IMG/VR virus record: IMGVR_UViG_2609459844_000008
Coordinates: 1-12,616 of that record
Source: a virus
Lineage: Duplodnaviria; Heunggongvirae; Uroviricota; Caudoviricetes
Reading direction: 5' to 3' (one strand)
Length of the DNA stretch: 12,616 bases
Within the stretch, counting starts at the first letter, position 1, and each line of letters starts with the position of its first letter. Under the pieces are notes generated by a model that saw only the letters and a program-made list of their open reading frames with translations, searched no databases and was not told the origin of the DNA. A program made the translations under genes and the position numbers. Positions 1 to 12,616 of this stretch are shown in pieces.

Positions 1-471
1 CAGTTTTTTGGCAATATGTAAGCCCTGGCCGACACAGCCGTACTGCCCTTTGCTCAGGTCTGCCTTCGGATGATTCAGCGTACTCATATCCTGCACATCA
101 TGCAGACAGTGGTCAGCCGGGATGATGTCGTTATACGTACAACTCTCTCCACCCGGAGTTACCGTGCTGCGGCGCGCCAGCTGTTTAATGCGCGGATCCG
201 GAGCATCGTAAGAATCCGGTAACGGAAGCCCTTCACCGTAGGCCATGCCGTTGGACTGTCCGGCAAGCACAACCACGTAGAACCAGTCCGGCTCAGATGA
301 AGGGCCGACCTGTGGATCTCCTTCAATAGCCACCGCCTGCATCAGTGTGTACGGCGTAATGGCAACCGGTCCGCCATATGGCTGCCAGCCCTCTTTCAGT
401 TTGTGTGTCAGCTTTTCCGCAAGGTCTGACGGCGACGCCGCCCTGACAACATCATAGTGTTTAAATGCCAT
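1..471 (-). CDS. Sialate O-acetylesterase NanS-p-like protein, N-terminal 157 codons only (gene continues past the window start)
   Basis: Manual translation of the minus strand from ATG at 471..469 gives MAFKHYDVVRAASPSDLAEKLTHKLKEGWQPYGGPVAITPYTLMQAVAIEGD..., then ...VVVLAGQSNGMAYGEG... (GQSN motif of SGNH/DUF303 esterases). SD GGAGG 5 nt upstream. Resemblance to the DUF1737 N-terminus of Stx-phage 933W L0105-type esterases is from memory, not searched. Frame stays open to position 1. Confidence 0.7.
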   Translation of the reverse strand, partial: MAFKHYDVVRAASPSDLAEKLTHKLKEGWQPYGGPVAITPYTLMQAVAIEGDPQVGPSSEPDWFYVVVLAGQSNGMAYGEGLPLPDSYDAPDPRIKQLARRSTVTPGGESCTYNDIIPADHCLHDVQDMSTLNHPKADLSKGQYGCVGQGLHIAKKL

Positions 472-665
472 GAATCCTCCCGGCCGGGATAATATTGTGA
501 GTAAAATGAGGAGCGGGCTGAAGTCCGGAAGTTACAGGACAATGGCAGAAGAGAGACAATAGCCCGCAATACGAAAAAGGCCGCGCTATTGCGCAGAGTG
601 ATTACTGTCGGATATTATTCGCCAGCTGAAATATTACTTCACGTTTTGTTGTTTATTCCTTGCCG

Positions 666-693
666 CCCGCGTCTCCCTGCGCGGGATTTTTTT
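666..693 (+). terminator. Candidate intrinsic terminator (plus strand)
   Basis: 6-bp GC stem CCCGCG(666-671)/CGCGGG(680-685), 8-nt loop, followed by A then seven T (687-693). No plus-strand ORF lies upstream of it. Confidence 0.45.
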
Positions 694-696
694 GTC

Positions 697-724
697 CATA
701 AGAAAGCCCCTCCGGAGAGGGGCT
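697..724 (-). terminator. Candidate intrinsic terminator (minus strand), back to back with the previous hairpin
   Basis: Perfect 8-bp stem AGCCCCTC(705-712)/GAGGGGCT(717-724) with CGGA loop; on the minus strand it is followed by UUCUUAU (interrupted U tract), so strength is uncertain. Confidence 0.35.
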
Positions 725-920
725 GGAGAGTGGCGCTATGTGCCATTGCATGGTGCCGGGTGCCTCCCGGTGAATTCAGTACCAGCACCTGAATCCGCGA
801 TTATCCCATATACCTACTCGCTGATTGCCCCTCCGCACAGGGGGATTCACCATGCCAGTTTCTTTTAACAAACTCCCCGCAAAACAGACAACTGTCAACC
901 GTCTGAATTGTGAGACATTT

Positions 921-945
921 AAAAAAAAGGCCCGCAAAAGCGAGC
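921..945 (-). terminator. Intrinsic terminator closing the tRNA cluster
   Basis: On the minus strand: hairpin GCUCGC-UUUU-GCGGGC (one G-U pair) from plus 930-945, followed directly by eight U (plus A-run 921-928), ~15 nt past the 3' CCA of the last tRNA. Confidence 0.65.
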
Positions 946-960
946 AAGGGAAAATAAGTG

Positions 961-1037
961 TGGCGCGTTGTACTGGATTCGAACCAGTGACCGATTGCTT
1001 AGAAGGCAATTGCTCTGTCCGGCTGAGCTAACAACGC
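961..1037 (-). tRNA. argO: tRNA-Arg, anticodon UCU (reads AGA), 77 nt with encoded CCA
   Basis: Hand-folded cloverleaf of the reverse complement: acceptor GCGTTGT/ACAACGC, D-stem GCTC/GAGC, anticodon stem ATTGC/GCAAT with loop CTTCTAA, T-arm ACTGG-TTCGAAT-CCAGT, discriminator G, CCA. Symbol is by positional analogy to the ileZ-argN-argO cluster of Stx phages and is tentative. Confidence 0.85.
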
Positions 1038-1050
1038 AGGGTACAGATAA

Positions 1051-1127
1051 TGGACCGCCATCGAGGACTCGAACCCCGCGCAACCAGCTTCGAAGGCTGG
1101 CGCTCTATCCTGATGAGCTAATGGCGG
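1051..1127 (-). tRNA. argN: tRNA-Arg, anticodon UCG (reads CGA), 77 nt with encoded CCA
   Basis: Hand-folded: acceptor CCGCCAT/ATGGCGG (C1-G72), D-stem GCTC/GAGC, anticodon stem CCAGC/GCTGG with loop CTTCGAA, T-arm CGGGG-TTCGAGT-CCTCG (one G-U), discriminator U, CCA. Symbol tentative. Confidence 0.8.
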
Positions 1128-1134
1128 TATGTGA

Positions 1135-1206
1135 TGGTGGCCCTTGCTGGATTTGAACCAGCGACCTGGCGATTATGAGTCGCTCTCACCACTGAGCTAA
1201 AGGGCC
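1135..1206 (-). tRNA. ileZ: tRNA-Ile2 (lysidine)/Met-type tRNA, anticodon CAU, only 72 nt; anticodon stem appears truncated (possible pseudo-tRNA)
   Basis: Acceptor GGCCCTT/AAGGGCC, D-arm GCTC-AGTGGTGA-GAGC, T-arm GCTGG-TTCAAAT-CCAGC, loop CTCATAA and CCA are all recognisable. Only 2 nt (GA) separate the D-stem from the anticodon loop where 6 are expected; compared with E. coli ileX as I recall it, about 4 nt of the 5' anticodon-stem strand are missing. Confidence 0.6.
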
Positions 1207-1215
1207 GGGAGCCGC

Positions 1216-1244
1216 ATAATAACGACGCGTAATTAATTCTTCAA
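1216..1244 (-). promoter_or_regulatory. Candidate sigma70 promoter for the tRNA cluster
   Basis: Minus strand reads TTGAAG (1244..1239), a 17-nt spacer, then TATTAT (1221..1216). Predicted start is 2-3 nt upstream of the mature 5' end of the first tRNA (1206), consistent with a short RNase P-processed leader. Confidence 0.5.
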
Positions 1245-1368
1245 TATCATCCGTTCTGGCTGACTAAATCCTGTACTTCCCGAACCGTCTGCTCAAAACA
1301 TTCAGTCTCCAGCTCAACGCCAATTGCACGACGCCCGAGCGCCAGTGCTGCTTTGACGCTACGGACAT

Positions 1369-1397
1369 AAAAAAGCCAGCCACTGGGGGAGGCTGGC
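1369..1397 (-). terminator. Candidate intrinsic terminator (minus strand) upstream of the tRNA promoter
   Basis: Perfect 7-bp stem GCCAGCC(1375-1381)/GGCTGGC(1391-1397), 9-nt loop; on the minus strand followed by six U (plus A-run 1369-1374). Confidence 0.55.
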
Positions 1398-1580
1398 GAA
1401 ACTCGTAGAGCAAAAGTGTTGTTACACTAACTTCGTCACAGGATTATCCTGCAATACTCAAAATACACAATATTTACAAAACTAATAGTATACAAGGCGA
1501 TCTTTAAGATTTTGTTATAAATTATTGCCTTTCTCCTCTTTCCATGAGCTTTCTGGGTAGCCACAGAATTCCGGGTACAG

Positions 1581-1604
1581 AAAAACCCGCTCAGCGGCGG
1601 GTTT
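1581..1604 (-). terminator. Candidate intrinsic terminator (minus strand)
   Basis: Stem CCCGC(1586-1590)/GCGGG(1597-1601), extendable with A-T pairs to 8 bp, 6-nt loop; on the minus strand followed by UUUUUCUG. Confidence 0.45.
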
Positions 1605-2031
1605 AAGCTGTGTGACGAAGTAACCACTCTTAACAGCATAACCAATTTTTTACGTACGTAAACCACTAAATGATATTTGCGAGAATGCTACCGAGTATTG
1701 AAAACACCACTACAAATACATAAGCAAATCTCAACAAATAACCAACAAATAATTTCCAGTGTTATTTTTAGCCGGTTTAAATTGAACCTTCAAATTATAG
1801 AGCACTTATAAATAACAGCCGTTAATATAAATTGGCTAATAGATTTATTTTTATTCAGCCAAGAGCCATGAATAGGATTCGATAGAAAAAAGTTCAGATA
1901 AAAATAGAGATCTACTTCACAAATCAAACGAGAAACCAAAACTAACATCTTGAAATAATCACATTGATTAGATGAATATTTATCGCGCAGTGACATCATT
2001 TTTTAATAATAGTTCAAAAAAAGGGCTCACG

Positions 2032-3114
2032 ATGAAAAAATTAACAGTGGCAATTTCTGCTGTAGCTGCATCAGTACTGATGGCGATGTCTGCTCAGGCA
2101 GCTGAAATTTATAATAAAGACAGTAACAAGCTGGATCTGTACGGGAAAGTTAATGCTAAGCACTATTTCTCCTCTAATGATGCAGATGATGGTGATACTA
2201 CTTATGCCCGTCTTGGCTTCAAAGGTGAAACCCAAATCAACGATCAACTGACTGGTTTCGGTCAGTGGGAATATGAATTCAAAGGCAACCGCGCTGAATC
2301 TCAAGGTTCCTCCAAAGATAAAACCCGTCTTGCCTTCGCTGGCCTGAAATTCGGTGACTACGGCTCAATCGATTACGGCCGTAACTACGGTGTAGCATAC
2401 GACATCGGTGCGTGGACTGACGTTCTGCCAGAATTCGGTGGCGATACCTGGACCCAAACAGATGTGTTCATGACTGGTCGCACCACTGGTGTTGCAACTT
2501 ATCGTAACAACGACTTCTTTGGTCTGGTTGATGGTCTGAACTTTGCTGCTCAGTATCAGGGTAAAAATGACCGCACTGACGTAACTGAAGCTAATGGTGA
2601 TGGTTTCGGTTTCTCCACTACTTATGAGTATGAAGGATTCGGTGTAGGTGCAACCTATGCTAAATCTGACCGCACTAATAATCAGGTTATCTACGGTAAC
2701 AACAGCCTGAATGCATCTGGTCAAAATGCTGAAGTATGGGCAGCTGGTCTGAAATATGATGCGAACAACATCTATCTGGCTACCACCTATTCTGAACCCC
2801 AGAACATGACTGTTTTTGGTAATAACCATATTGCCAACAAAGCACAAAACTTCGAAGTAGTTGCACAATATCAGTTCGACTTCGGTCTGCGTCCGTCCGT
2901 TGCTTACCTGCAATCTAAAGGAAAAGACTTGGGTGCGTGGGGTGATCAGGACCTGGTTGAATATATTGATGTAGGTGCAACCTATTACTTCAACAAAAAT
3001 ATGTCCACTTTTGTTGATTACAAAATCAACCTGATTGATAAGAGCGATTTCACGAAAGCATCTGGCGTTGCTACCGATGATATCGTTGCTGTAGGTATGG
3101 TTTACCAGTTCTAA
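2032..3114 (+). CDS. Outer-membrane general porin, OmpC/OmpF superfamily, closest in character to OmpD/NmpC/Lc prophage porins (360 aa)
   Basis: Start taken at the internal ATG 2032 with SD AAGGG 6 nt upstream, not the 1972 ATG. Signal peptide [23 protein letters not shown] then [16 protein letters not shown]; characteristic porin motifs ([44 protein letters not shown]) and C-terminal ...VAVGMVYQF ending in Phe. TAA stop 3112-3114. Confidence 0.95.
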
Positions 3115-3138
3115 TTTGATTACTAAAAGATATGTTGC

Positions 3139-3157
3139 GGGGGGGTTTGCCTCCCCC
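3139..3157 (-). other. GC hairpin between the Q-like gene and the porin 3' end; weak terminator candidate on the minus strand
   Basis: G-run 3139-3145 pairs with C-run 3153-3157 around a 7-nt loop; on the minus strand it is followed by GCAACAUAUCUUUU (U tract displaced ~8 nt), so terminator function is doubtful. Confidence 0.3.
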
Positions 3158-3250
3158 ACATATAAGAGGCTCCCTCAAGCCACTTCCTTTAGGAGCACAA
3201 CCTTGCTTCTAACTATATAAACCTTCTGTTATATATTACCCTTTATTTTT

Positions 3251-3280
3251 GGGGGCGTTGCAACGCCCCATTTTTAATAA
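3251..3280 (+). terminator. Intrinsic terminator of the porin gene
   Basis: Perfect palindrome GGGGCGTTGCAACGCCCC (3252-3269) followed on the plus strand by ATTTTTAATAATTTTT. Confidence 0.6.
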
Positions 3281-3302
3281 TTTTTAGTAAACAATTGGCA
3301 TA

Positions 3303-3686
3303 TTAATTAGAGTTATTAACAACGATATCCATCTCTAACCGGATATCTAATGCCATTAACATCCCTTCAATTATGCCCTCAGCCTTCTGTAACCTTTTCC
3401 CGATATAACCATCAGAGCAGCAATGCTTACCTGCCAGTGACATGAATGTCATACCGACTACATAATAATCTACTAATAAATCGTGCAAATCGCTGTTGTT
3501 CTTTTTCAGACGGGCCATGCACCCGCAAATAATCATCGCGTCATCGTCACAACATTGCGGGCGAGATTTTACTTTTGAAGTAATTAATCCCTTAAAACCG
3601 GCGGCAATGGACGACCAGGTCACATCTTCATGATTATTAGCCGCCCACGCTCCCCAGCGTTCGAGAACCATCTGAATATCACGCAT
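3303..3686 (-). CDS. Late-gene antiterminator Q-like protein (QuuD/DLP12-type, 127 aa)
   Basis: Start moved from the TTG at 3701 to ATG 3686..3684, which has SD GGAG 7 nt upstream. Product [24 protein letters not shown]...[16 protein letters not shown]... matches my recollection of the DLP12 QuuD-type Q protein. Last gene of the minus-strand operon, convergent with the porin gene. Confidence 0.8.
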
Positions 3687-3703
3687 CAACTTTCTCCACA
3701 AAA

Positions 3704-4723
3704 TCAGGACAGCACACCAATCGCCAGCGCGCGATCGATAAAACGAAATATCAGCTCCAGTTGGGAACCATACTTCTCTTCAAATGCCACGGTATCCGCA
3801 TGTAGTTCGTCATGGTGTTTTCTGCACAAAGGCAACACAAAAAGGTCATGCGCTTTTGTACCCATTCCACCCTGACCATGACCAATCAGGTGATGAGGAT
3901 CGTCGGCTGGCTTACCACAACATGCACACGGCTGCGTCTTAACCCAGCGCGTGTACTTTTCATTAACCCAGCGACGACGTTTTGGGCGTAACATAAAAGA
4001 CTCCGGCGACTCCGGATCCACTTTCAGCGCCAGCACCTTTTTCGCTTTATCCTGGATGATGCTGGTGGCAGGAACCGAAGGCACAAGGTCACTTTCCCGG
4101 GTGACAGACGGCACAACAGGCTTCGGTAATCTCAGTGCCTTACGGGCTGCACTTTCCGGTAAGGCATCCGCCAGGTCATTACGAATCAGCCACCAGCACA
4201 GTTCCGGCATTGTCACAACGTGACTGTCATCAAAACCGAGATCCCGACGCACAACAGACAACACCCAGCGGGCACAGTTATCCGTTGCCATTGATTCCAG
4301 CCGTTCCGTGAACTGATCGCGCAGCTGGTTATCGCAGTGCCAGCACAGACGGATTGCACCCGGAGCGTGTCGCATTGTGGTCATGTTCTCGCTGTGCCAG
4401 TCGGAATGAGGCCACTGGCAGCCTTTTTCACGAAGTAACCAGCTTTCAAGACATTCCACGCCACCAGCACGACGGATCACTGCCTCATTGCGGAACACGG
4501 CCCGAACGGCAGGATCATCCGCCAGCGGTTGTGATGCCGCCGGAACGGCACCACTGGCGAAAGATGAATAACGTTCCGGCTCAGGCTCCAGCAGGACACG
4601 CCCCTGCATAAACAGGGGCATCAGCTCTGAACCGGGCCTGAACAATACAATCCCCATACGCGGGGCAATTTCAGGGGTCAGCAGTGCTCTCACGGTCACC
4701 TCAGCAAACGATATTGAATGCAT
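3704..4723 (-). CDS. nin-region protein, DUF968/YdfU-like, with a C-terminal HNH-like Cys/His motif (339 aa)
   Basis: ATG 4723..4721 with no strong SD. C-terminus ...[45 protein letters not shown] has the CxxC...HH...GG...C..HH spacing of HNH nucleases. Family name recalled, not searched. Confidence 0.7.
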
Positions 4724-4744
4724 ACAGAGAAAAAAACTCAGTCA

Positions 4745-5002
4745 TCACGCAGTAAACTCCTTCACCAGTATTTCAAACTGGCTTACCTGTCCTTCCAGTT
4801 CCTCCACGCAATCCACCAGCTCATCCACCGCCTTTTGTGTACGGTGTTTTGCCTGCAGCAGATCACGAAGCGCCGGAGTAAGCTGCTTGCGGAGCGTATC
4901 TTTTGCCACGCTCGTTTTTTCCATCTGTTCAGCACAACGAAGCATCTCCTGCGCCTGCCGACGAAGTTGTTCCGGTGAAACAGTGATTGTTCTGTTGTTC
5001 AA
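4745..5002 (-). CDS. Hypothetical small protein (85 aa), predicted helical/coiled-coil
   Basis: TTG start at 5002..5000 overlapping the DnaB-like TGA (TTGA), with GGAG 9 nt upstream. No recognised domain. Confidence 0.5.
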   Translation of the reverse strand: MNNRTITVSPEQLRRQAQEMLRCAEQMEKTSVAKDTLRKQLTPALRDLLQAKHRTQKAVDELVDCVEELEGQVSQFEILVKEFTA

Positions 5003-6399
5003 AATAAACGCTCCGTTTTACTGCCCGACATGCGGTTATTGCTGTATCTGCGCGGATTGCCCGGCGTCATGGGTGTGGAAAGAACCCGGGCACTCTCCTG
5101 ATCCACAGGCAGAAAATGCCCGTTATGAAAACGCCGGTAAATGGTACCCAGCGTGCCATTACGCTGTTTCGTGATGTTGATTTCTGCTATGCCTCTGGCC
5201 TGAGTTTCCGGGTTGTATACCTCATCCCTGTAAAGCATCAGAATGATGTCGGCATCCGCCTCGATTTCCCCGGAGTTTTTCAGGTCCGAGTTCATTGGGC
5301 GTTTATTGGGTCTGGATTCCACGCCGCGGGAGAGCTGGCTCAGAGCAATCAGCGGAAAACCGCCGGATTTTGCCAGGCTTTTAAGTCCCTTTGAGATTTC
5401 CCCCACCGCAAGGTCGTGACGCCCCGTGCTGCGGGTTTTAATCAGGCCGAGGTAATCGACCACCACCAGCGCCGTTTCCGGGTGTTTCATCCGGTGGTGC
5501 TTCGTGGTTGCACATATCTCATCAATGGTCAGGTTTGCCTGGTCCACCATCCAGATATTACGCCCCGTCATTCGTCCCACGCCCTGCGTGAAACGCGCCC
5601 AGTCTTCATCTTCAAAACGGGCAACAGACTTAAGACGGGATACCGGCATTCCACCGGCAGCAGACACCATACGTTCACCAATCTGGATGTTCGCCATCTC
5701 CATGGTGAACAGAAGCACGCCATGCCCCTGCTCAGTCACCTTGTCGATGATGTCCAGCGCAAGTTCGGTTTTCCCCATCGAAGGACGGGCGGCAATGAAT
5801 ACCAGGTCTCCGGGCTCCATACCGCCCGTTTTTGCGTCCAGTTCATCAATACCGGTCATCAGCGCCCTGGATTTCTCCAGTCCCTGATTGCGGCATTCAA
5901 CACGGTCGACCACTTCCGGAAGGACATCATCAATGTGAACCGGCTGAATGACGCCCTTTCCGGTCGACAGTGAGGCCATCATGTTCTGCGCATCCTTCAG
6001 GGCATCCTCGGCTGCTTCACAGGTATACGCATCACGTAAATTCTGTAATGCTTCAGTCAGTGTTTTTTCTGCATCGCGCAGTGCGGCATTGCGCCGCAAC
6101 GCTGCGACATAGTGCTCCAGTGAAGACTTCACCCAGGTTTTGCGTCCGGTGTCGGTAATCACCGGGGCAAGTTCCGGCATCTCATTGCACAGCAGTACGG
6201 GGTCAATGACGCCGGATATGCGAGCCTGTCTGCAAATCCCCGCGTAAATATCCCGGTACTGACGCACAAAAAATACATCCGCCGGAAGTGTGGCCAGAAT
6301 ATCCATCACTTCCGGATCGGCCCCACGCAGAAAAAACGCACCGATGACAGCGCCTTCCAGGTCATCGTTACGCCATGCCGGGGTGTTCTGGCTGGTCAT
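4999..6399 (-). CDS. Replicative DNA helicase, DnaB family (466 aa, phage-encoded)
   Basis: ATG 6399..6397 overlaps the upstream stop (ATGA); SD GGAGG upstream. Walker A AARPSMGKTELALD and Walker B LVVVDYLGL, typical DnaB N- and C-domain sequence. Confidence 0.95.
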   Translation of the reverse strand: MTSQNTPAWRNDDLEGAVIGAFFLRGADPEVMDILATLPADVFFVRQYRDIYAGICRQARISGVIDPVLLCNEMPELAPVITDTGRKTWVKSSLEHYVAALRRNAALRDAEKTLTEALQNLRDAYTCEAAEDALKDAQNMMASLSTGKGVIQPVHIDDVLPEVVDRVECRNQGLEKSRALMTGIDELDAKTGGMEPGDLVFIAARPSMGKTELALDIIDKVTEQGHGVLLFTMEMANIQIGERMVSAAGGMPVSRLKSVARFEDEDWARFTQGVGRMTGRNIWMVDQANLTIDEICATTKHHRMKHPETALVVVDYLGLIKTRSTGRHDLAVGEISKGLKSLAKSGGFPLIALSQLSRGVESRPNKRPMNSDLKNSGEIEADADIILMLYRDEVYNPETQARGIAEINITKQRNGTLGTIYRRFHNGHFLPVDQESARVLSTPMTPGNPRRYSNNRMSGSKTERLF

Positions 6400-7295
6400 G
6401 CGGCAACACCTCCGATACGAGAACGGTAGCTGGGCCAGTTAAACGACAACCAGTTGCGCCCGCCATCGGTGATCCTGTCGGCAATCCGGGGACTGATGAA
6501 CGCCCACAATTCTTCCGGTGAAAGGTTGCTGATCAGGATAGTTGGCAAAATACCCTCATACCGGGCATTGATAATTTCCTGCAAAATGGCCATTTCAGCC
6601 GCACTGCCAAACTGAACGCCGACTTCGTCGACAATCAGCAAATCCAGTGACGCATAATGCTCAATGACGTCATCCGCTGTTTTTTCACTGTCATTCCGCC
6701 AGCAGTTTTTCACAGCCCGGGTAAGGCGCATCACGTCGGTGATCTCCACACTGGCCAGATAGTTACGGATGATGTGTTTTGCCATTGATACCGCCAGATG
6801 ATTTTTCCCGGTACCGCAACTGCCGGTCATAACAATACTGGTACCGTTCTCCAGCATATCTGGCCAGTTCTCCGCATAGCGGCGACAGGCCGCAAGATTT
6901 CTGGCTGCGTCAGGATTAACCTCCAGATAATTATCAAACTCGCAGTCCCGAAAACGCAGAGCAATTCCGGCGTTATCAGTCAGTTCTTCCGCCTTGAGGG
7001 ACGACAGTTCCATGGTCAAATCACTGGCCTCAGCGATCAAGCAGTCAGGGCAGCATGAAATTTTTTCTCTGTCCTCGCCATTACGATCGATCCACACCAG
7101 TATATGCGTACGATATTTACCGTGTTTTTCGCAATATCCGCGATCTTCACGCATCAGGCAGGAACGATAAGGCCATGGCTTTTCGCCCTTCTGAGCAAAT
7201 GCAATCTCTGCCCGTAACTCATCCATTTCTGCCCGTAACTCATCCATTCGCGCCTGTAGTCTTGTTTGTTTCTCACGTTGGTCAATCGTCATCAT
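6396..7295 (-). CDS. DnaC-like helicase loader, IstB-type AAA+ ATPase (about 299 aa)
   Basis: Walker A GSCGTGKNHLAVSMAK and Walker B LLIVDEVG. The longest ORF starts at GTG 7304; ATG 7295..7293 is preferred because GAGGT sits 7 nt upstream. The N-terminus contains a perfect 7-aa duplication (MDELRAE x2). Confidence 0.9.
   Translation of the reverse strand: MMTIDQREKQTRLQARMDELRAEMDELRAEIAFAQKGEKPWPYRSCLMREDRGYCEKHGKYRTHILVWIDRNGEDREKISCCPDCLIAEASDLTMELSSLKAEELTDNAGIALRFRDCEFDNYLEVNPDAARNLAACRRYAENWPDMLENGTSIVMTGSCGTGKNHLAVSMAKHIIRNYLASVEITDVMRLTRAVKNCWRNDSEKTADDVIEHYASLDLLIVDEVGVQFGSAAEMAILQEIINARYEGILPTILISNLSPEELWAFISPRIADRITDGGRNWLSFNWPSYRSRIGGVAA
7207..7248. repeat. Perfect 21-bp tandem duplication (2 copies) inside the DnaC-like gene
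   Basis: TCTGCCCGTAACTCATCCATT at 7207-7227 and again at 7228-7248; in frame, encoding MDELRAE twice. Confidence 0.9.
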
Positions 7296-7305
7296 CGCTG
7301 TCACC

Positions 7306-8298
7306 TCAGAATGTCAATTTGTTACTGGATTTACCGAATTTGTCAGACATGGCTCCCAGGCCAGCCAGGACATCGACCTGTCGCTGTCGCCCACCTCCGT
7401 GAGCGGCTGGCTGTTGCCAGTAATCTTCGAAGTGACGATCGGGTCCAAAGAACGTCGCAGCCTGCTTCACGAACTGTGTGCCGGTATTTCCTGTAGCACG
7501 TACCCAGGCGGCATACCGCTTCACGCCATCAAGCATGGTCTCCGGTTTTATTCCCTCCCTGATACGGGCTTTCCAGGCTTTGAAGGCTGCTGACTTGGAA
7601 TTGCCACCAGCACGTTTGGGATATTCCTGCCAGGCCTGTTCAAATTCCGGTGAATATTCCTGTCGGGCAGAACGCGCTGGCGCAGACGCGTCAGCGGATG
7701 CATCAATAGTGTTTTTAGTCTCCGTTGTAATCTCTGTAGTAATCTCTGTATTTGTATCAACATTCGGCGTATCCCCTGTTCCGTTATGACGTCGGGGGGT
7801 GTTCCGTTTTAACGTAATAGCTGTATCGCTGATTGCATTATTGCTGTTACTTTCTGGCGAAACAGAAGAAGGTGTGGTGATGGCCGCAATTGCCTGTGGG
7901 TTGATCCCGACAAACAAAATATTGCTGCATTTCACCCCATCGAGCATTTCCACCGTGCGTAAATCCAGAGTAATAAACCCTGTATCGCGCAGACGCTTCA
8001 GCGCATCTGCGGTTTCCCTTTTCCCGAAACCAAACTGCTCAGCAAACGCCTGGTAGCTTCTTTGCAGTTTGTCGCCCTGAAAACGCTTGCGATATCCCAG
8101 CAACGCTCCGGTGTGCTCATCCCTGACCTCTGTCGGGCGGTACCAGTAAACGATCTCTGAAAGCAGAGCGATAGCCGTCGCATCCGGACGCCCACTGGGT
8201 AGTCGAATATATTTCCACCAGTTCGCAGGTGTAACATTGCCGGAAATATTAATTTGACCAATAGCCATAACTTCCGGTGTGGGGGCGTAACGGCTCAT
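7306..8298 (-). CDS. Phage replication initiator / replisome organiser, lambda O-like (330 aa)
   Basis: ATG 8298 with SD AAGGAGG upstream. N-terminal domain and C-terminal region (EYSPEFEQAWQEYPKRAGG...AAWVRATGNTG...) separated by a low-complexity T/E/I/S-rich linker; sits directly upstream of the loader and helicase genes. Confidence 0.85.
   Translation of the reverse strand: MSRYAPTPEVMAIGQINISGNVTPANWWKYIRLPSGRPDATAIALLSEIVYWYRPTEVRDEHTGALLGYRKRFQGDKLQRSYQAFAEQFGFGKRETADALKRLRDTGFITLDLRTVEMLDGVKCSNILFVGINPQAIAAITTPSSVSPESNSNNAISDTAITLKRNTPRRHNGTGDTPNVDTNTEITTEITTETKNTIDASADASAPARSARQEYSPEFEQAWQEYPKRAGGNSKSAAFKAWKARIREGIKPETMLDGVKRYAAWVRATGNTGTQFVKQAATFFGPDRHFEDYWQQPAAHGGGRQRQVDVLAGLGAMSDKFGKSSNKLTF
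7727..7750. repeat. 12-bp direct repeat, 2 tandem copies, in the linker-coding part of the O-like gene
   Basis: GTAATCTCTGTA at 7727-7738 and 7739-7750, encoding TEITTEIT, with degenerate related sequence on both sides. Confidence 0.8.
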
Positions 8299-8594
8299 AC
8301 AACCTCCTTCCGCGGCATGAGAATTGTGTAGCCACGCGCAGGTTGTAGTCTGGCTTTTGCATCAATAGTAAGCGTTGCAATTTTTCGGATATGAAGATAA
8401 CCAGCTCTTTCCAGTGCCAGGGTTTCCCTGAATATCGCTTGCTTAGAACAACAGCAGAAATCAGCAAGCACCTGATGATCAATAACTCTCTCGCCTTCAC
8501 CGTCTGAAGAACCCGACATCAAAACACGCAACATAACCAGGCGCTGAATCGGGTTATCGAAAGCACATCCGCACACAAACTGAAAACAGTTCAC
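8295..8594 (-). CDS. Hypothetical protein (99 aa), possible winged-helix DNA-binding fold
   Basis: GTG start overlapping the upstream stop (GTGA); stop overlaps the O-like ATG (ATGA). Segment VLADFCCCSKQAIFRETLALERAGYLHIRK resembles a recognition helix and wing. Start codon uncertain. Confidence 0.55.
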   Translation of the reverse strand: MNCFQFVCGCAFDNPIQRLVMLRVLMSGSSDGEGERVIDHQVLADFCCCSKQAIFRETLALERAGYLHIRKIATLTIDAKARLQPARGYTILMPRKEVV

Positions 8595-8815
8595 GCCACA
8601 CCTCCCAGACGCTTAAACATTTTTCCAGACAGAAATACCGCCAGAGGGTAACTGATGGTGTAGCTACGCCCCTGTAGTTCGCACACGACTTTCTGGCTTT
8701 CAGCGTTGACCAGGCAAACCCGCAGAACGTGACCGTTGCTGGTGGCGAACCACTGCCCCACACGGGGGCAACGGTTGTATCGGTGATACAGGGAATTAAC
8801 GATGTGGCGGATCAT
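8591..8815 (-). CDS. Hypothetical protein (74 aa)
   Basis: ATG 8815 with SD GGAGGTG 7 nt upstream; 4-nt overlaps with both neighbours. Confidence 0.6.
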   Translation of the reverse strand: MIRHIVNSLYHRYNRCPRVGQWFATSNGHVLRVCLVNAESQKVVCELQGRSYTISYPLAVFLSGKMFKRLGGVA

Positions 8816-9006
8816 GGATGCACCTCCGCCGTAGTTACGTATTTAACCGGGCTACCTTTCATTGAGATGGTTTCACACATCTCTGCCGCTTTCAGTTCCG
8901 CTGTTTTTCTGGATTTATAGCGACGGTGCCAGACAGATACATCCGTGCGAACTGATACATCGTTTCTGTATTCCGTAGTGGAGATGATGATTTCGTAACT
9001 AATCAT
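8812..9006 (-). CDS. Hypothetical protein (64 aa)
   Basis: ATG 9006 with SD AAGGAGG upstream; ATGA overlap with the Rha-like stop. Confidence 0.6.
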   Translation of the reverse strand: MISYEIIISTTEYRNDVSVRTDVSVWHRRYKSRKTAELKAAEMCETISMKGSPVKYVTTAEVHP

Positions 9007-9554
9007 GGGCGAACCTCCTTGTCAGAACCATTCAGCCTGGAATCAACAAGTGCAGCGCCAAAAACAGCATCACCAACACGGTCGTACAGTTTGCTAGCCA
9101 GCGGAGATTCAATGGCCTTAAGCATTGGATAAAGCTGGCTTGTCCAGATTTGATGGATTTCACGCAAATGCAGGTATACGCCTCTGGCGTTTCGTGCGAC
9201 AGCTGACATATCAACCGCGTCAGCACCAGATAAATTCTTCTCCATCTGGTTAAAGGCGTTGATGTATGCCTCTTTGAACCGGGCTGCACGTTTGCCAGTA
9301 AAGCCCATAGCAAGGAACGCGAAGCCATCACGGGTGATTTGATAGCAAGGTAGTTTGCGGCCTGTGCAATCGGTGTAATCACTCACCGAAAAATTGCGGG
9401 CAGTGAATGATGCGGAGCATTCAAGCGTGCGGATCTTTTTCAGTACATCGTCATGACGCTTGGAGAAGAAGTTGGCAACAGCCAGGGATGAAGTAACAGC
9501 CTGACCATCAACGATGGCAATTTCAGGTTGAGTGAGGGTTGGGATCGTAGCCAT
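9003..9554 (-). CDS. Phage regulatory protein Rha family (183 aa)
   Basis: Start set at the internal ATG 9554..9552 with SD GGAGG 8 nt upstream; the 100-codon extension up to 9854 has no RBS and is low-complexity. Product has Rha hallmarks: FSKRHDDVLKKIR, YQITRDGFAFLAMGFTGKRAARFKEAYINAFNQME. Confidence 0.8.
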   Translation of the reverse strand: MATIPTLTQPEIAIVDGQAVTSSLAVANFFSKRHDDVLKKIRTLECSASFTARNFSVSDYTDCTGRKLPCYQITRDGFAFLAMGFTGKRAARFKEAYINAFNQMEKNLSGADAVDMSAVARNARGVYLHLREIHQIWTSQLYPMLKAIESPLASKLYDRVGDAVFGAALVDSRLNGSDKEVRP

Positions 9555-9938
9555 GATGGCAGCCTCCGTTGACTGTGGAAAACTTCCACCACCGGAGCTG
9601 CGAAACTCACTGGTGGCAGACTGAACAGGGTTCGCAGTACCGGCGTCAACGGAGACCGGCGAGCCTTTCGGCTCCCCTGCCCAGCCCACCATAATTCTGG
9701 CGTGCGTGAGCGCGGACGATAAAAAAGACGCTGGCGCGTCATATATCGCCGTTGACAATTCCGGGCTGCGACCCCCGGCACCCGCTTTATAAGGTGCAGA
9801 GACAGTGTAACGTCCCGAAATTGCAGAATCAATATTTGGTCTTGAAATGATCATATAGCTGCTGATATCTTTAGAACTGTTCTTGGATGTTTCGGAGCCG
9901 TTTTATGCGAAACAGCTCCCCGTTATTGATGTTGAGTG

Positions 9939-9963
9939 AGCCGGGTTACTCCCGGCTTTTTTT
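9939..9963 (+). terminator. Strong intrinsic terminator on the plus strand with no plus-strand gene upstream
   Basis: Perfect 7-bp stem AGCCGGG(9939-9945)/CCCGGCT(9951-9957), loop TTACT, then seven T through 9963. It abuts the stop codon (9965..9963) of the minus-strand gene; on the minus strand it is preceded by A and not followed by U. Confidence 0.6.
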
Positions 9964-10358
9964 CACCGCTGCCAACCAATAACCTGAAATAACCCCATTT
10001 TCGGGTGATACCAGCGAGTCCCTCGCGGTTCTGCTTCCTCCATAACCCGATAAAAAGCAGCCATAAACGGTTCCACAGCAACAATTGCGCGACGTGACAA
10101 CAATCCGTCCGGCGTCATGAACTCATGTGTGTCTGTAGGAATTTGATAGGCGTTCACCAGATTGCGGCATTTATCATCTGACAAACCGGTTTTTGCTTTC
10201 AGTTGGCGATATCCGGCATAGCCCTCACGAATAGTGCCCTTTTTAATTTGCTCGACTGTTTCAGCAACGTGGCTGACTTTTTCTTCCACCTGAGTGATCC
10301 GTTTCTGCTGACGAACTGCTTCAAGAGCCATCGCGGCAACCATTTCGATTTCGCTCAT
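9963..10358 (-). CDS. Hypothetical prophage protein (131 aa); first gene of the minus-strand block
   Basis: ATG 10358 has no convincing SD. The frame is stop-free for 53 more codons upstream (to TGA at 10520..10518) but contains no ATG/GTG/TTG. No recognised domain. Confidence 0.55.
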   Translation of the reverse strand: MSEIEMVAAMALEAVRQQKRITQVEEKVSHVAETVEQIKKGTIREGYAGYRQLKAKTGLSDDKCRNLVNAYQIPTDTHEFMTPDGLLSRRAIVAVEPFMAAFYRVMEEAEPRGTRWYHPKMGLFQVIGWQR

Positions 10359-10520
10359 TGGCTTACGGATCTGTTCTTCCAGTTCGCGCCAGCGATCTAC
10401 CAGGCGAGCAGTGAATTCAGGACAGAGCTGTGCGACGACAATGATGCTGTCGCGCTTAACTCCGGATGGTTGGATAAGCTGTAGTGAGCGAATGCCGGAC
10501 GACAGGCAGGAGGTGAATCA

Positions 10521-10622
10521 ATGAGCTGGCCTGATGCAATCGTAACTCTGGGGGGTGGTATTCGCAGCAGCGTTTGTTGTGTTCTCGATTTGTCGATGGG
10601 GATAACCACATGTTCGCTTTGA
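10521..10622 (+). CDS. Candidate small ORF (33 aa) with a strong RBS, overlapping the start of the next gene; possible leader/upstream ORF
   Basis: AGGAGGTGA at 10508-10516, ATG 10521; product MSWPDAIVTLGGGIRSSVCCVLDLSMGITTCSL; TGA 10620-10622 overlaps the downstream ATG at 10610 out of frame. Below the size cut of the ORF track. Confidence 0.3.
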   Translation: MSWPDAIVTLGGGIRSSVCCVLDLSMGITTCSL

Positions 10623-10852
10623 TTCAACGCGGTCAGATATACACGGACAGAGCCGGATACCCCGTGGTGATTACTCGCATCACTGAGCACTCAGTGTTCT
10701 TTCGACGGATGGACGGACGATCCGGGCGGGTACGCATTGGTGAGTTAAACTGCCTGTTCGAACATATTGACCACCAGGAGTACCGCAAAATTCTCGCGGA
10801 CACTGAGCAGGAAAAGCACCTGAAAAAATTACGAGCCATAAAAAGGAAGTAA
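10610..10852 (+). CDS. Hypothetical small prophage protein (80 aa)
   Basis: Internal ATG 10610 preferred over the TTG at 10574. Product MFALIQRGQIYTDRAGYPVVITRITEHSVFFRRMDGRSGRVRIGELN...; TAA at 10850-10852. Confidence 0.6.
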   Translation: MFALIQRGQIYTDRAGYPVVITRITEHSVFFRRMDGRSGRVRIGELNCLFEHIDHQEYRKILADTEQEKHLKKLRAIKRK

Positions 10853-10855
10853 AGA

Positions 10856-11002
10856 ATGAATAAAGCATTTGAACGATGGGTCCACCAGCGTTACGGCAAT
10901 CGCTATTACCTGACGCGAGATGTTGACGGCTTCTACTGTCGTGAAGTTGTGAAGCGAATGTTTGAAGTGTGGTGCCACTGCCGTGGGCTGAGTGTTGTGT
11001 GA
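10856..11002 (+). CDS. Candidate small protein (48 aa) with a C-terminal Cys/His cluster
   Basis: ATG 10856 three nt after the upstream stop, with AGGAAG 4 nt upstream (short spacing, probably coupled). Product MNKAFERWVHQRYGNRYYLTRDVDGFYCREVVKRMFEVWCHCRGLSVV; TGA 11000-11002 lies 8 nt before the next ATG. Not in the ORF track. Confidence 0.45.
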   Translation: MNKAFERWVHQRYGNRYYLTRDVDGFYCREVVKRMFEVWCHCRGLSVV

Positions 11003-11010
11003 GGTAATAC

Positions 11011-11247
11011 ATGGGCAATGTGATTCAACTGGCTCCCAATGAATGGGTTTGTGAAAGCGTTCTTATCGCAATTACCGGGCTCAAACCAGGCACAATTCTT
11101 CGGGCCCGGAAAGAATGCTGGATGGTTGGAAGAGAGTATATTCACGTATCACCAGACGGTAATCCAAAGCCTTCCAGTGAATGTATGTATAACAGAAAAG
11201 CAATAGATGCCTGGGTCGCCTCAATGAAAAACAAACAACCCAGGTGA
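11011..11247 (+). CDS. Excisionase-like small DNA-binding protein (78 aa)
   Basis: ATG 11011 with GAGG 6 nt upstream; immediately upstream of and co-oriented with the integrase. Resemblance to prophage excisionase-like proteins is from memory. Confidence 0.65.
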   Translation: MGNVIQLAPNEWVCESVLIAITGLKPGTILRARKECWMVGREYIHVSPDGNPKPSSECMYNRKAIDAWVASMKNKQPR

Positions 11248-11302
11248 TTTAATATCATGAAATATGTAAGCTCGTATCGCTCTTGGGCGTCTGGAGGTAT
11301 CG

Positions 11303-12616
11303 ATGGATAAAGTCAAATATCCAACAGGCGTCGAAAACCACGGCGGCACATTACGCATCTGGTTTAATTTTAAAGGTAAACGTGTCAGGGAAAATCTTGG
11401 TGTCCCTGACACTGCCAAGAACAGGAAGATCGCCGGGGAACTGCGGACATCAGTATGTTTTGCCATCCGCACAGGAAGCTTTGATTATGCTGCACAGTTC
11501 CCTGACTCCCCCAACCTTCAGGCTTTTGGGGTAAGTAAAAAAGAAATTACGGTGAAGGAACTTGAAGAAAAGTGGCTGGATCTGAAACGAATGGAAATCT
11601 CTGCAAATGCATTCAATCGCTATGAATCCGTTGCAAGAACGATGGCTCCGAAAATTGGAGGCAGTAGACTGGTGTCATCGGTAACCAAAGAGGAATTGCT
11701 GTATATCAGGAAAGATTTGCTTACCGGGTATCAGAATTCAACGAAAAACAAAGCAGCAGCAAAAGGACGGAGCGTCGTTACTGTAAATTATTACATGACG
11801 ACAATCGCTGGAATGTTTCAGTTTGCTGCAGATCACGGTTACTTAGAAGCAAATCCCTTCCAGGGAATTAAGCCTCTTAAAAGAGCCAGGGCAGAGCCAG
11901 ATCCGCTAACTCGTGACGAATTTATTCGCCTGATAGATGCTTGCCGACATCAGCAGACGAAAAACCTGTGGTCATTGGCTGTGTACACAGGAATGCGTCA
12001 CGGTGAACTGGTCTCCCTGGCCTGGGAAGATATCGATCTGAAGGCAGGAACAATTACCATCAGGCGCAATTATACGAAACTTGGTGAGTTCACTCTACCG
12101 AAAACTGAAGCAAGCACAAACAGGGTTGTGCACCTTATCCAGCCCGCTATCAGTGTCCTGAAAAATCAGGCTGAAATGACAAGACTGGGTAAGCAGTACA
12201 ACATCAAGGTGCAACTACGTGAATATGGACGTTCAGTGAACCATGAATGTACTTTCGTGTTTAACCCTCAAGTGGTTAGAAAAAGCGAACAGGTAGGTTT
12301 TGTCTACAAAGTCGATTCTGTAGGTGACTCATGGGAAACAGCCATTAAGCGTGCAGGGATCAGGCATCGAAAGGCATACCAGTCACGACACACTTATGCG
12401 TGCTGGTCATTATCTGCCGGAGCAAACCCAAGCTTCATTGCCAGCCAGATGGGCCATGCAAGTGCCCAGATGGTATTCAATGTATACGGAGCATGGATGA
12501 CTGACAGCAATGCAGAACAGATCGCAATGCTGAATCAGAAGCTGACAGATTATGTCCCAATGATGCCCCATAGTCACCAAAGTGACACCAGAGGCTTATT
12601 AAAATCAGTAAGTTAA
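11303..12616 (+). CDS. int: Tyrosine site-specific recombinase / phage integrase (437 aa)
   Basis: ATG 11303 with SD GGAGGT at 11293-11298. C-terminal catalytic domain with ...YTGMRHGELVSLAWEDIDL... (Arg), ...RHTYACWSL... (His-x-x-Arg) and ...MGHASAQMVFNVYGAW... (His and Tyr). TAA at 12614-12616. Overall resemblance to Stx-phage 933W-type integrases is recalled, not tested. Confidence 0.95.
   Translation: MDKVKYPTGVENHGGTLRIWFNFKGKRVRENLGVPDTAKNRKIAGELRTSVCFAIRTGSFDYAAQFPDSPNLQAFGVSKKEITVKELEEKWLDLKRMEISANAFNRYESVARTMAPKIGGSRLVSSVTKEELLYIRKDLLTGYQNSTKNKAAAKGRSVVTVNYYMTTIAGMFQFAADHGYLEANPFQGIKPLKRARAEPDPLTRDEFIRLIDACRHQQTKNLWSLAVYTGMRHGELVSLAWEDIDLKAGTITIRRNYTKLGEFTLPKTEASTNRVVHLIQPAISVLKNQAEMTRLGKQYNIKVQLREYGRSVNHECTFVFNPQVVRKSEQVGFVYKVDSVGDSWETAIKRAGIRHRKAYQSRHTYACWSLSAGANPSFIASQMGHASAQMVFNVYGAWMTDSNAEQIAMLNQKLTDYVPMMPHSHQSDTRGLLKSVS

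Follow-up and report, generated by a model that had tools for sequence, protein, structure and literature searches.

A predicted IsrK-C4 riboregulatory cassette before a prophage rha gene, and a conserved hairpin and promoter-like site on the opposite strand upstream of it

We analysed a stretch of 12,616 nucleotides (nt) from a virus of the Caudoviricetes (IMG/VR record IMGVR_UViG_2609459844_000008, positions 1 to 12,616; the whole stretch is referred to as the window), in which a gap separates rha, a gene for an antirepressor-like regulator, from the open reading frame (ORF) upstream of it. Both genes lie on the minus strand, and the gap of 408 nt (9555-9962) runs from the stop codon of the upstream ORF (9963-9965) to the ATG of rha (9554-9552). 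Judged from its sequence, the gap very probably holds a minus-strand riboregulatory cassette composed of the small RNA IsrK and a C4-type antisense RNA, like the c4-icd-ant immI region of phages P1/P7 and the isrK-orf45-anrP region of Gifsy-1. Cassettes of this kind are already known, and this is a textbook-type phage riboregulator. A hairpin and a promoter-like site on the plus strand lie upstream of the cassette and are not part of it. An earlier note on this DNA had described the gap as a long untranslated leader of about 400 bp with a possible antisense RNA on the plus strand; the length agrees with ours, but control is here assigned to IsrK and C4-like RNAs made on the rha strand from a promoter of their own.

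Two RNA families fill most of the gap before rha

An Rfam scan of the window placed two families on the minus strand that fill most of the gap. IsrK (RF01394) matched from 9797 to 9721 over the full model (positions 1-77 of 77), with 58.7 bits against a gathering threshold of 50. The C4 antisense RNA (RF01695, clan CL00128) matched from 9696 to 9609, also over the full model (positions 1-87 of 87), with 78.8 bits against a threshold of 45. Both families were overlooked in the earlier note, as was a minus-strand intrinsic terminator inside the gap (9740 to 9721). The 'c4 antisense RNA' and 'c4-a1b1' motifs were listed previously (Weinberg et al. 2010), and some GenBank records already mark isrK and C4, even the a' and b' segments of the latter, before antirepressor-type genes. 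In what follows, family membership, the complementarities and the three-way covariation are supported directly, and repression by C4, activation by IsrK, processing of C4 and the antirepressor role of Rha are taken over from experiments in P1/P7 and Gifsy-1.

The putative IsrK promoter, read from the sequence, lies at 9832-9804 on the minus strand (-35 TTGATT at 9832-9827, a 17-nt spacer and -10 TACACT at 9809-9804), and its position would put the start of the RNA near G9797. It is identical at 29 of 29 positions in diverged homologues and is collinear with the Gifsy-1 isrK promoter, TTGACA-17-TATATT. The predicted small RNA (9797-9721), equivalent to the c4-a1b1 motif, contains the segments a1 (UCGCAG, 9771-9766) and b1 (GUCAACGG, 9756-9749). 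The minus-strand terminator, GACGC..GCGTC-U6 with its stem at 9740-9727 and U6 at 9726-9721, is assigned to IsrK, and it is conserved, as is the promoter-like site.

An arrangement of two such promoters was seen in the Stx2 phage F039 (locus L007), which has a TTGACT-18-TATATT promoter twice, at 328-357 and 664-693, 336 nt apart. Of the two, the second belongs to isrK, and the first may mark another isrK-like unit.

The C4 element (9696-9609, minus strand) has stems with compensatory changes and is closed by UGGUGG (9691-9686) paired with CCACCA (9616-9611). Complementary sites were located by a script search. The segment b' (CUCCGUUGAC, 9654-9645) is exactly complementary to b2 (GUCAACGGAG, 9573-9564) over 10 nt, and b2 overlaps the rha Shine-Dalgarno sequence, GGAGG (9567-9563), which stands 8 nt before the ATG. 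The segment a' (CUGCGAA, 9637-9631) is exactly complementary to a2 (UUCGCAG, 9604-9598) over 7 nt. The same two C4 segments are complementary to the IsrK segments, b' to b1 over 8 nt and a' to a1 over 6 nt, and the resulting order a1 b1 - b' a' - a2 b2 is the layout of the P1/P7 c4 system. In the minimum-energy fold of the whole 258-nt leader (-126.5 kcal/mol, z = -5.6), the b'-b2 helix forms. The CCACCA after the closing stem is invariant, and we take it to resemble an RNase P recognition end, at which C4 may be excised from its precursor before acting in trans as a repressor.

To determine how far these pairings are conserved, we used an alignment of 14 sequences reaching down to ~67% identity, drawn from phage records and E. 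coli genomes and including phiP27, a Salmonella phage, Stx phages and APSE-3. Over the C4 stems, b'-b2 and a'-a2 together, 98.2% of cells were paired and 20 of 44 pairs showed compensatory changes; none of 500 shuffles matched this score, and slid controls were 34-46% paired. The three C4 helices were 98.6-100% paired (9 of 27 pairs changed on both sides). Compensatory changes were found in four of the five pairs of the main a'-a2 helix and in seven of the ten pairs of b'-b2, that is, 11 of 15 pairs for the two main helices together. The alternative partners behaved likewise, with a1-a' and b1-b' 97.9% paired and 11 of 14 pairs compensatory.

The changes come as discrete alleles. At least three a-alleles (UCGCAG/CUGCGA, UUGGCGU/ACGCCAA and UUGGAAC/GUUCCAA) and at least five b-alleles occur among the homologues; E. 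coli, Salmonella and Stx prophages combine them in nine or more ways, and the IsrK, C4 and target sites always switch allele together. From these sequences, the a and b segments look like a combinatorial specificity code.

One prophage of E. coli AVS0969 (locus L013) contains two IsrK-C4 cassettes in tandem, at 791-1263 and 1622-1919, which differ in their alleles and each lie upstream of their own 'ash family' ORF. The second cassette is 98.7-100% identical to that of the window.

Proposed control of rha translation

We propose that the constitutive-looking promoter at 9832-9804 would start transcription near 9797, and that most transcripts would end at the 9740-9721 terminator to give the ~77-nt IsrK RNA. 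The remaining transcripts would read through the C4-like element (9696-9609) into rha. In the predicted fold of C4, a long stem closes over two inner hairpins and leaves b' and a' exposed to pair with b2 and a2; pairing at b2 would block ribosome loading on rha, whether C4 is still part of the read-through RNA (in cis) or has been excised (in trans). Free IsrK, whose a1 and b1 are copies of a2 and b2, would occupy a' and b', free the ribosome-binding site of rha and turn translation on. The variable a and b sequences would then set recognition among IsrK, C4 and target, as in P1/P7 heteroimmunity.

Several points weigh against this proposal. The IsrK promoter matches the consensus at only 8 of 12 positions, under the threshold of the promoter scan, and Rha-family proteins are only presumed to be antirepressors here. 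The RefSeq/PGAP coding sequence at this place is a 283-residue Rha (WP_024226990.1) or an 'ash family protein', and the leader translation matches Pfam Phage_ASH (PF10554) with 62 bits. In 13 of 14 homologues, a shorter frame that starts at an AUG within C4 stays open and in register with the gene downstream. Finally, in Gifsy-1 the regulated ribosome-binding site was placed at orf45 and not at anrP, the anrP site showed no structural change, and activation was explained by translational coupling (Hershko-Shalev et al. 2016, PMC4825925). Because the Gifsy-1 authors place control at orf45, direct occlusion of the rha Shine-Dalgarno sequence is drawn here from the pairing and from P1.

RNA or protein in the leader

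The earlier note had read the gap as non-coding despite long stop-free frames, and both observations hold. A 283-codon ORF (9854 to 9003, minus strand) does run through the gap without a stop and in frame into rha, and the leader is nevertheless non-coding on the evidence of the two Rfam families, the intrinsic terminator inside the long frame and the lack of codon-position bias. The annotated alternative, a 283-residue Ash-Rha fusion translated from 9854 in which the RNA matches are incidental, is consistent with the open frame, with its coverage by WP_024226990.1 and with the Phage_ASH match; we consider it very improbable. Both Rfam matches exceed their gathering thresholds, and a terminator and the IsrK start fall inside the frame. 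No ribosome-binding site was found at the 9854 start. Variable columns of the leader are spread over the three codon positions (33/29/32), against a third-position excess in the rha coding region (for example 5/8/26 and 0/1/13). The compensatory changes at three sites fit RNA pairing and not protein constraint, the allele switches cause non-conservative residue changes in the leader translation, and the corresponding Gifsy-1 RNAs have been demonstrated experimentally (PMC4825925).

Annotation of the cassette as protein is widespread. Many phage records translate it as part of a Rha/Ant of 283-383 residues or as an 'ash family protein', and RefSeq/PGAP-type translations were found at nine of our loci (L009-L013 and L027-L030). 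The Pfam 'Ash' family, from which the PGAP label on the leader comes, is named after the Ash protein of phage P4. Since the region has no codon-position bias, the Phage_ASH family may be modelling an RNA element.

A different kind of translation is harder to dismiss. A 46-codon ORF (9692-9555, minus strand) begins at an AUG on the 5' strand of the C4 stem and continues in frame with rha without a stop; it is the positional equivalent of Gifsy-1 orf45, its AUG corresponding to Gifsy-1 AUG107, and its translation also matches Phage_ASH. IsrK could thus act in the manner of Gifsy-1, opening the C4 closing stem for ribosomes to start at the 9692 AUG and translate into rha, which would yield Rha with a 46-residue N-terminal extension or would unfold b'-b2 for internal starts. 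The orf45 precedent speaks for this variant, as translation of orf45 is required for IsrK-dependent anrP expression (PMC4825925). So does the conservation of the open frame, which persists in one homologue despite a 3-nt insertion. An invariant GGUGGUG (9592-9586, minus strand) points the same way: it duplicates the 5' side of the closing stem, is also complementary to CCACCA (9616-9611) on the 3' strand, for which it could compete, and its columns do not vary in the alignment. As a candidate alternative pairing, it may be the alternative-structure switch described for Gifsy-1 (structures A/B). We nonetheless think the variant unlikely. No Shine-Dalgarno sequence precedes the 9692 AUG, variable columns of the 46-codon part show no codon-position bias (17/16/19), and its residues change freely with the a and b sites. 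The equivalent frame is unfused in Gifsy-1, where orf45 is closed by a stop codon, and is closed in APSE-3, and rha has a strong GGAGG of its own that b2 covers. We read the leader as RNA and not as protein-coding, while allowing for translation through the 46-codon frame in the coupled style of Gifsy-1.

Comparison with known systems

Translation of anrP in Gifsy-1 increases 139-fold when IsrK is provided in trans, and AnrP is an inducer of the prophage; binding of IsrK to Hfq and its activation of translation in trans are known from Gifsy-1 only. The authors likened IsrK to the seqA/CI pair of P4 and reported the compensatory mutants G28A/C162U and G31A/C159U (Hershko-Shalev et al. 2016, PMC4825925). 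The isrK-orf45-anrP region, taken from the full Gifsy-1 sequence, is collinear with the cassette of the window. When the Gifsy-1 IsrK is numbered from the A of ACGCC, the landmarks of that paper fall into place (C18, G28, G31, AUG107, AUG119-121, C159 and C162), and the compensatory mutants are therefore identified as a1-a' pairs: G28-C162 and G31-C159 lie in a1 (U26-U32) and a' (A158-A164), and the equivalent pairs in the window are exact and covary. Gifsy-1 and the window have in common both Rfam families, in identical order upstream of an antirepressor-like gene, the a1/b1, b'/a' and a2/b2 logic with b2 over a Shine-Dalgarno sequence, and an AUG at the same place in the C4 stem; the Gifsy-1 IsrK terminator permits read-through. 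They differ in their a and b alleles and in location, the Gifsy-1 cassette lying in the late region after the Q antiterminator gene and that of the window in the early region after a roi-like gene. The stop codon of orf45 falls at the anrP start, whereas the frame in the window is fused to rha. Gifsy-1 also lacks the intergenic hairpin and plus-strand promoter-like site upstream of the isrK promoter.

The immI region of P1/P7 is reported, in work by Citron and Schuster from 1990, to consist of c4 antisense RNA, icd and ant. The comparison with these phages also draws on two articles (PMC8198154, PMC12197685). As predicted for the window, C4 precedes its own target within a single transcript, its exposed a' and b' pair with a2 and b2 at a ribosome-binding site, copies a1 and b1 lie upstream, and the controlled gene is of the antirepressor type, as rha may be; allele differences between P1 and P7 set specificity (heteroimmunity). 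The blocked site in P1 is that of icd, with ant silenced by polarity, whereas in the window b2 covers the Shine-Dalgarno sequence of rha itself. Unlike in P1, a1 and b1 of the window belong to a separately terminated small RNA, IsrK. P1 is moreover a plasmid prophage and the element that carries the cassette of the window a lambdoid one, and Rha is unrelated in sequence to P1 Ant1/2. The P4 immunity region (seqA - CI RNA (seqB) - seqC), named as a structural homologue by the Gifsy-1 authors, likewise has a processed small RNA between upstream and downstream complementary sites; its CI RNA causes premature transcription termination of replication genes.

A conserved hairpin and promoter-like site on the plus strand

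Upstream of the cassette, the earlier note had predicted a small plus-strand RNA from a terminator and a TTGAAA-18-TATCTT promoter, and both elements are present. The terminator-like hairpin (9938-9965) has a stem at 9938-9958 with eight pairs, six of them G-C, followed by T7 at 9959-9965, which overlaps the stop codon of the upstream ORF. It folds on the plus strand with -16.6 kcal/mol (z = -4.4), and on the minus strand it reads as an A7-hairpin without a U tract. The sigma-70 promoter-like site (9842-9871) consists of TTGAAA (9842-9847), an 18-nt spacer and TATCTT (9866-9871), with an extended -10 TG at 9863-9864. It matches the consensus at 9 of 12 positions and stands back to back with the IsrK promoter, 9 bp separating the -35 hexamers. 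Taken alone, such a match is at chance level (one found against 2.0 expected in 2.1 kb).

The RNA that these elements would delimit (~9876-9965, ~90 nt) was proposed to be antisense to the rha leader, and this does not hold. The leader is predicted to start at ~9797, so the plus-strand elements are all upstream of it, and the hypothetical RNA lies wholly upstream of the IsrK start. It overlaps only the upstream stop codon, at ~80 nt from the IsrK start and ~320 nt from the rha ribosome-binding site. It would overlap nothing but read-through transcripts from the upstream gene, which is itself cut at ~10456 in the window.

The resemblance to lambda OOP and P22 sar noted earlier survives in part. 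Like OOP, an RNA of 77 nt, the hypothetical RNA would be short and leftward, starting from a promoter immediately beyond the gene next after cro and ending at an intrinsic terminator at the 3' end of that gene; position and orientation are all that correspond. OOP overlaps ~50 nt of the cII coding sequence, whereas the predicted RNA reaches the upstream stop codon only, and we know of no sequence similarity between the two. Like P22 sar, which is associated with control of the antirepressor gene ant, a small RNA would be encoded on the opposite strand between an upstream gene and an antirepressor-like gene. The comparison fails because the RNA would not overlap a ribosome-binding site: sar covers that of ant, and the plus-strand motif ends ~385 nt upstream of the rha start. 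The predicted blocker of the ribosome-binding site in the window is the sense-strand C4, unlike the antisense sar.

The motif itself is conserved in three lineages, of which lineage 1 includes the window. Kept in all three are the stem, a run of 6-8 T, TTGAAA, TG-n-TAT(C/T)TT, the exact 18-nt spacing and the block GTTCTTGGAT (9879-9888, plus strand), which would form the 5' end of the RNA and is invariant amid diverging flanks. Between these elements, identity falls to ~50% with indels, and the hairpin loop varies. No second site complementary to GTTCTTGGAT was found within the window. A two-hairpin RNA is predicted on the plus strand in all three lineages (z = -3.5 to -4.9). Folding of the plus strand is more favourable than that of the minus strand by 4-7 kcal/mol in lineages 2 and 3, and one single-base variant of the central hairpin in lineage 2 stays paired on the plus strand only, via a U-G pair. 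In lineage 1, both strands fold equally well, and two single-base variants keep the central hairpin on the minus strand only.

The distribution of the motif is narrow. Segment 9836-9975 was found in 237 of 5426 complete E. coli genomes and in 11 phage records, against 212 phage records that match the isrK-C4 leader; most isrK-C4 phages (>200) are homologous to the window from 9835 onwards, a point immediately ahead of the IsrK -35. The isrK-C4 phages Sal3, Stx2a_1447 and F039 and the Stx1a phages have no antisense terminator upstream of the isrK promoter. The motif is also absent from phiP27 and Gifsy-1, where the upstream gene ends at the isrK promoter, and in distant relatives of that gene in other genera neither hairpin nor isrK follows it. 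Hairpin and promoter-like site are conserved in three lineages at one junction and are lacking in more than 200 other isrK-C4 phages. All 91 true copies of the hypothetical RNA sit at this junction, between the roi-like stop and the IsrK promoter.

The motif is real, and that a discrete RNA of ~90 nt is made from it (from TTGAAA/TGaTATCTT, with a start at ~9876 and an end at the 9938-9965 terminator) is a side hypothesis drawn from sequence, possible but held tentatively. It would explain the canonical terminator with its T run, the retention of the -35, the TG-n--10 and their spacing while spacer and body diverge to about half identity, the conserved block at the predicted 5' end, the shared two-hairpin architecture and the better plus-strand folding of lineages 2 and 3. 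On the other side stand the chance-level promoter match, the equal folding of both strands in lineage 1, with two variants favouring the minus strand, the single context of all copies, which is not the behaviour of an independent gene, its absence from most isrK-C4 phages and the lack of overlap with the leader made from the IsrK promoter. The motif matched no Rfam family and could not be mapped to any published Hfq-bound small RNA of enterohaemorrhagic E. coli (EHEC). If made, the RNA would be an orphan in the OOP position that acts on read-through from the upstream operon or in trans via its 5' end (GUUCUUGGAU).

That no plus-strand RNA is made is quite possible, if short of probable. The hairpin would then shape the 3' end of the upstream message or insulate cro/cI from stray leftward transcription, and the hexamers would be conserved as the upstream region of the IsrK promoter (-45 to -75) or by recent common descent. 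The hairpin abuts the upstream stop codon and always travels with the 3' end of that gene, TTGAAA is set in an A/T-rich stretch with only 9 bp between it and the IsrK -35, and the motif is confined to three close lineages, all E. coli-type prophages. However, a hairpin lacking a U tract on the minus strand would be a poor terminator for the upstream gene, the non-coding A-run is kept at 6-8 residues, which is sensible only for the plus strand, and other isrK promoters (>200 phages, with homology from 9835) have no conserved sequence upstream of the -35.

A similar hairpin between co-directional genes in ~70 unrelated GC-rich viral contigs (among our loci L032-L151, for example L035, L038, L054 and L056) would also suit a generic intergenic element. 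It has the same A7-GCCGGG-loop-CCCGGCUC form, and its 3' flank, UUUCAACAAC, resembles ACUCAACAUCAAUAAC of the window. It directly follows a co-directional ORF, with an ATG 30-45 nt further on, and precedes another conserved inverted repeat, behind which comes a Rha-like (MSSREIAELTGKRH) or Bro-N-like ORF. No Rfam family was found at the seven such loci scanned. If related to the hairpin of the window, it could be a sign of a broader, so far undescribed group of leader elements.

Several identities for the plus-strand RNA were considered and rejected. The EHEC prophage small RNAs AgvB/AsxR, HnrS and StxS belong to late regions and differ in sequence. From Table S2 of Tree et al. (2014), EcOnc22 is of promising size (~85 nt) and maps to Sp15 tail genes, and EcOnc15 maps between stx1A and Q; no entry of that table could be mapped to the plus-strand element, and no copy of the junction was located in the Sakai genome. 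A full-text search with the hairpin sequence returned no paper, and we found no published transcript for the RNA. A 31-codon plus-strand ORF from 9889 was discarded as its frame, read from the alignment, is not conserved between lineages. An 8-nt match of the RNA (UGCGAAAC) to a2 is missing in lineage 2 and at chance level, and RNAduplex of the RNA with the leader gave whole-length duplexes that are meaningless. By eye, no LexA box or nut site (boxA/boxB) was seen around 9800-9960.

rha, the upstream gene and the genome context

The rha gene (9554-9003, minus strand) has 183 codons and encodes a Rha-family, antirepressor-like regulator (Pfam PF09669, 107 bits; TIGR02681), with a match to P22_AR_C below threshold; related phage records name the product Ant or antirepressor. 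The upstream 131-codon ORF (10358-9963, minus strand), whose product has no Pfam match, is the C-terminal remnant of a 235-residue Rha-family (Roi-like) DNA-binding protein. The intact 708-nt gene follows cro in E. coli AR_0372, Stx2a phages and PhiR49_2, and the gene order of intact relatives is cI, a cro-like gene, the Roi-like gene, the hairpin, isrK-C4, rha/ant and replication genes.

In the window, homology to intact phages stops at 10454-10458, and homology to an int/xis arm begins at 10457. We identify the upstream ORF as a remnant, with the immunity region and early promoter deleted, from this switch in homology at ~10456. At the deletion junction (~10456/10457), the roi-like gene is cut after ~163 C-terminal codons and joined to a DUF551/DUF4222/xis/int arm; cI, cro and the early promoters are gone. 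The IsrK promoter is probably the sole promoter serving rha in the window. The junction was found in no complete E. coli genome of our collection.

The other end of the window contains, on the rha strand, STnc100 (RF02076, 139 bits) and three tRNA genes, at 694-884 and 964-1206. Genes for tRNAs are a usual feature of the late region in Stx-type lambdoid phages.

Implications for prophage regulation

If the plus-strand RNA exists, it would be a new small RNA at the lysis-lysogeny control point of Stx-type prophages. As an undescribed small RNA of ~90 nt, it would add a third RNA layer to the antirepressor switch of one E. coli/Stx prophage group, which we regard as rather doubtful; its role might be to link the early operon with the IsrK-C4 cassette, or it might have a phage or host target on which it acts in trans.

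Identification of the cassette corrects the annotation of this region, as an RNA cassette would stand where records give an 'ash family protein' or extend Rha/Ant at the N terminus. It also ties the mutational data on Gifsy-1 IsrK directly to the a/b-site scheme of P1 c4. Our comparison brings out with unusual clarity at least three by five interchangeable alleles that switch together at three sites, which would make a natural specificity code for cross-talk or immunity between co-resident prophages, Shiga-toxin phages included.

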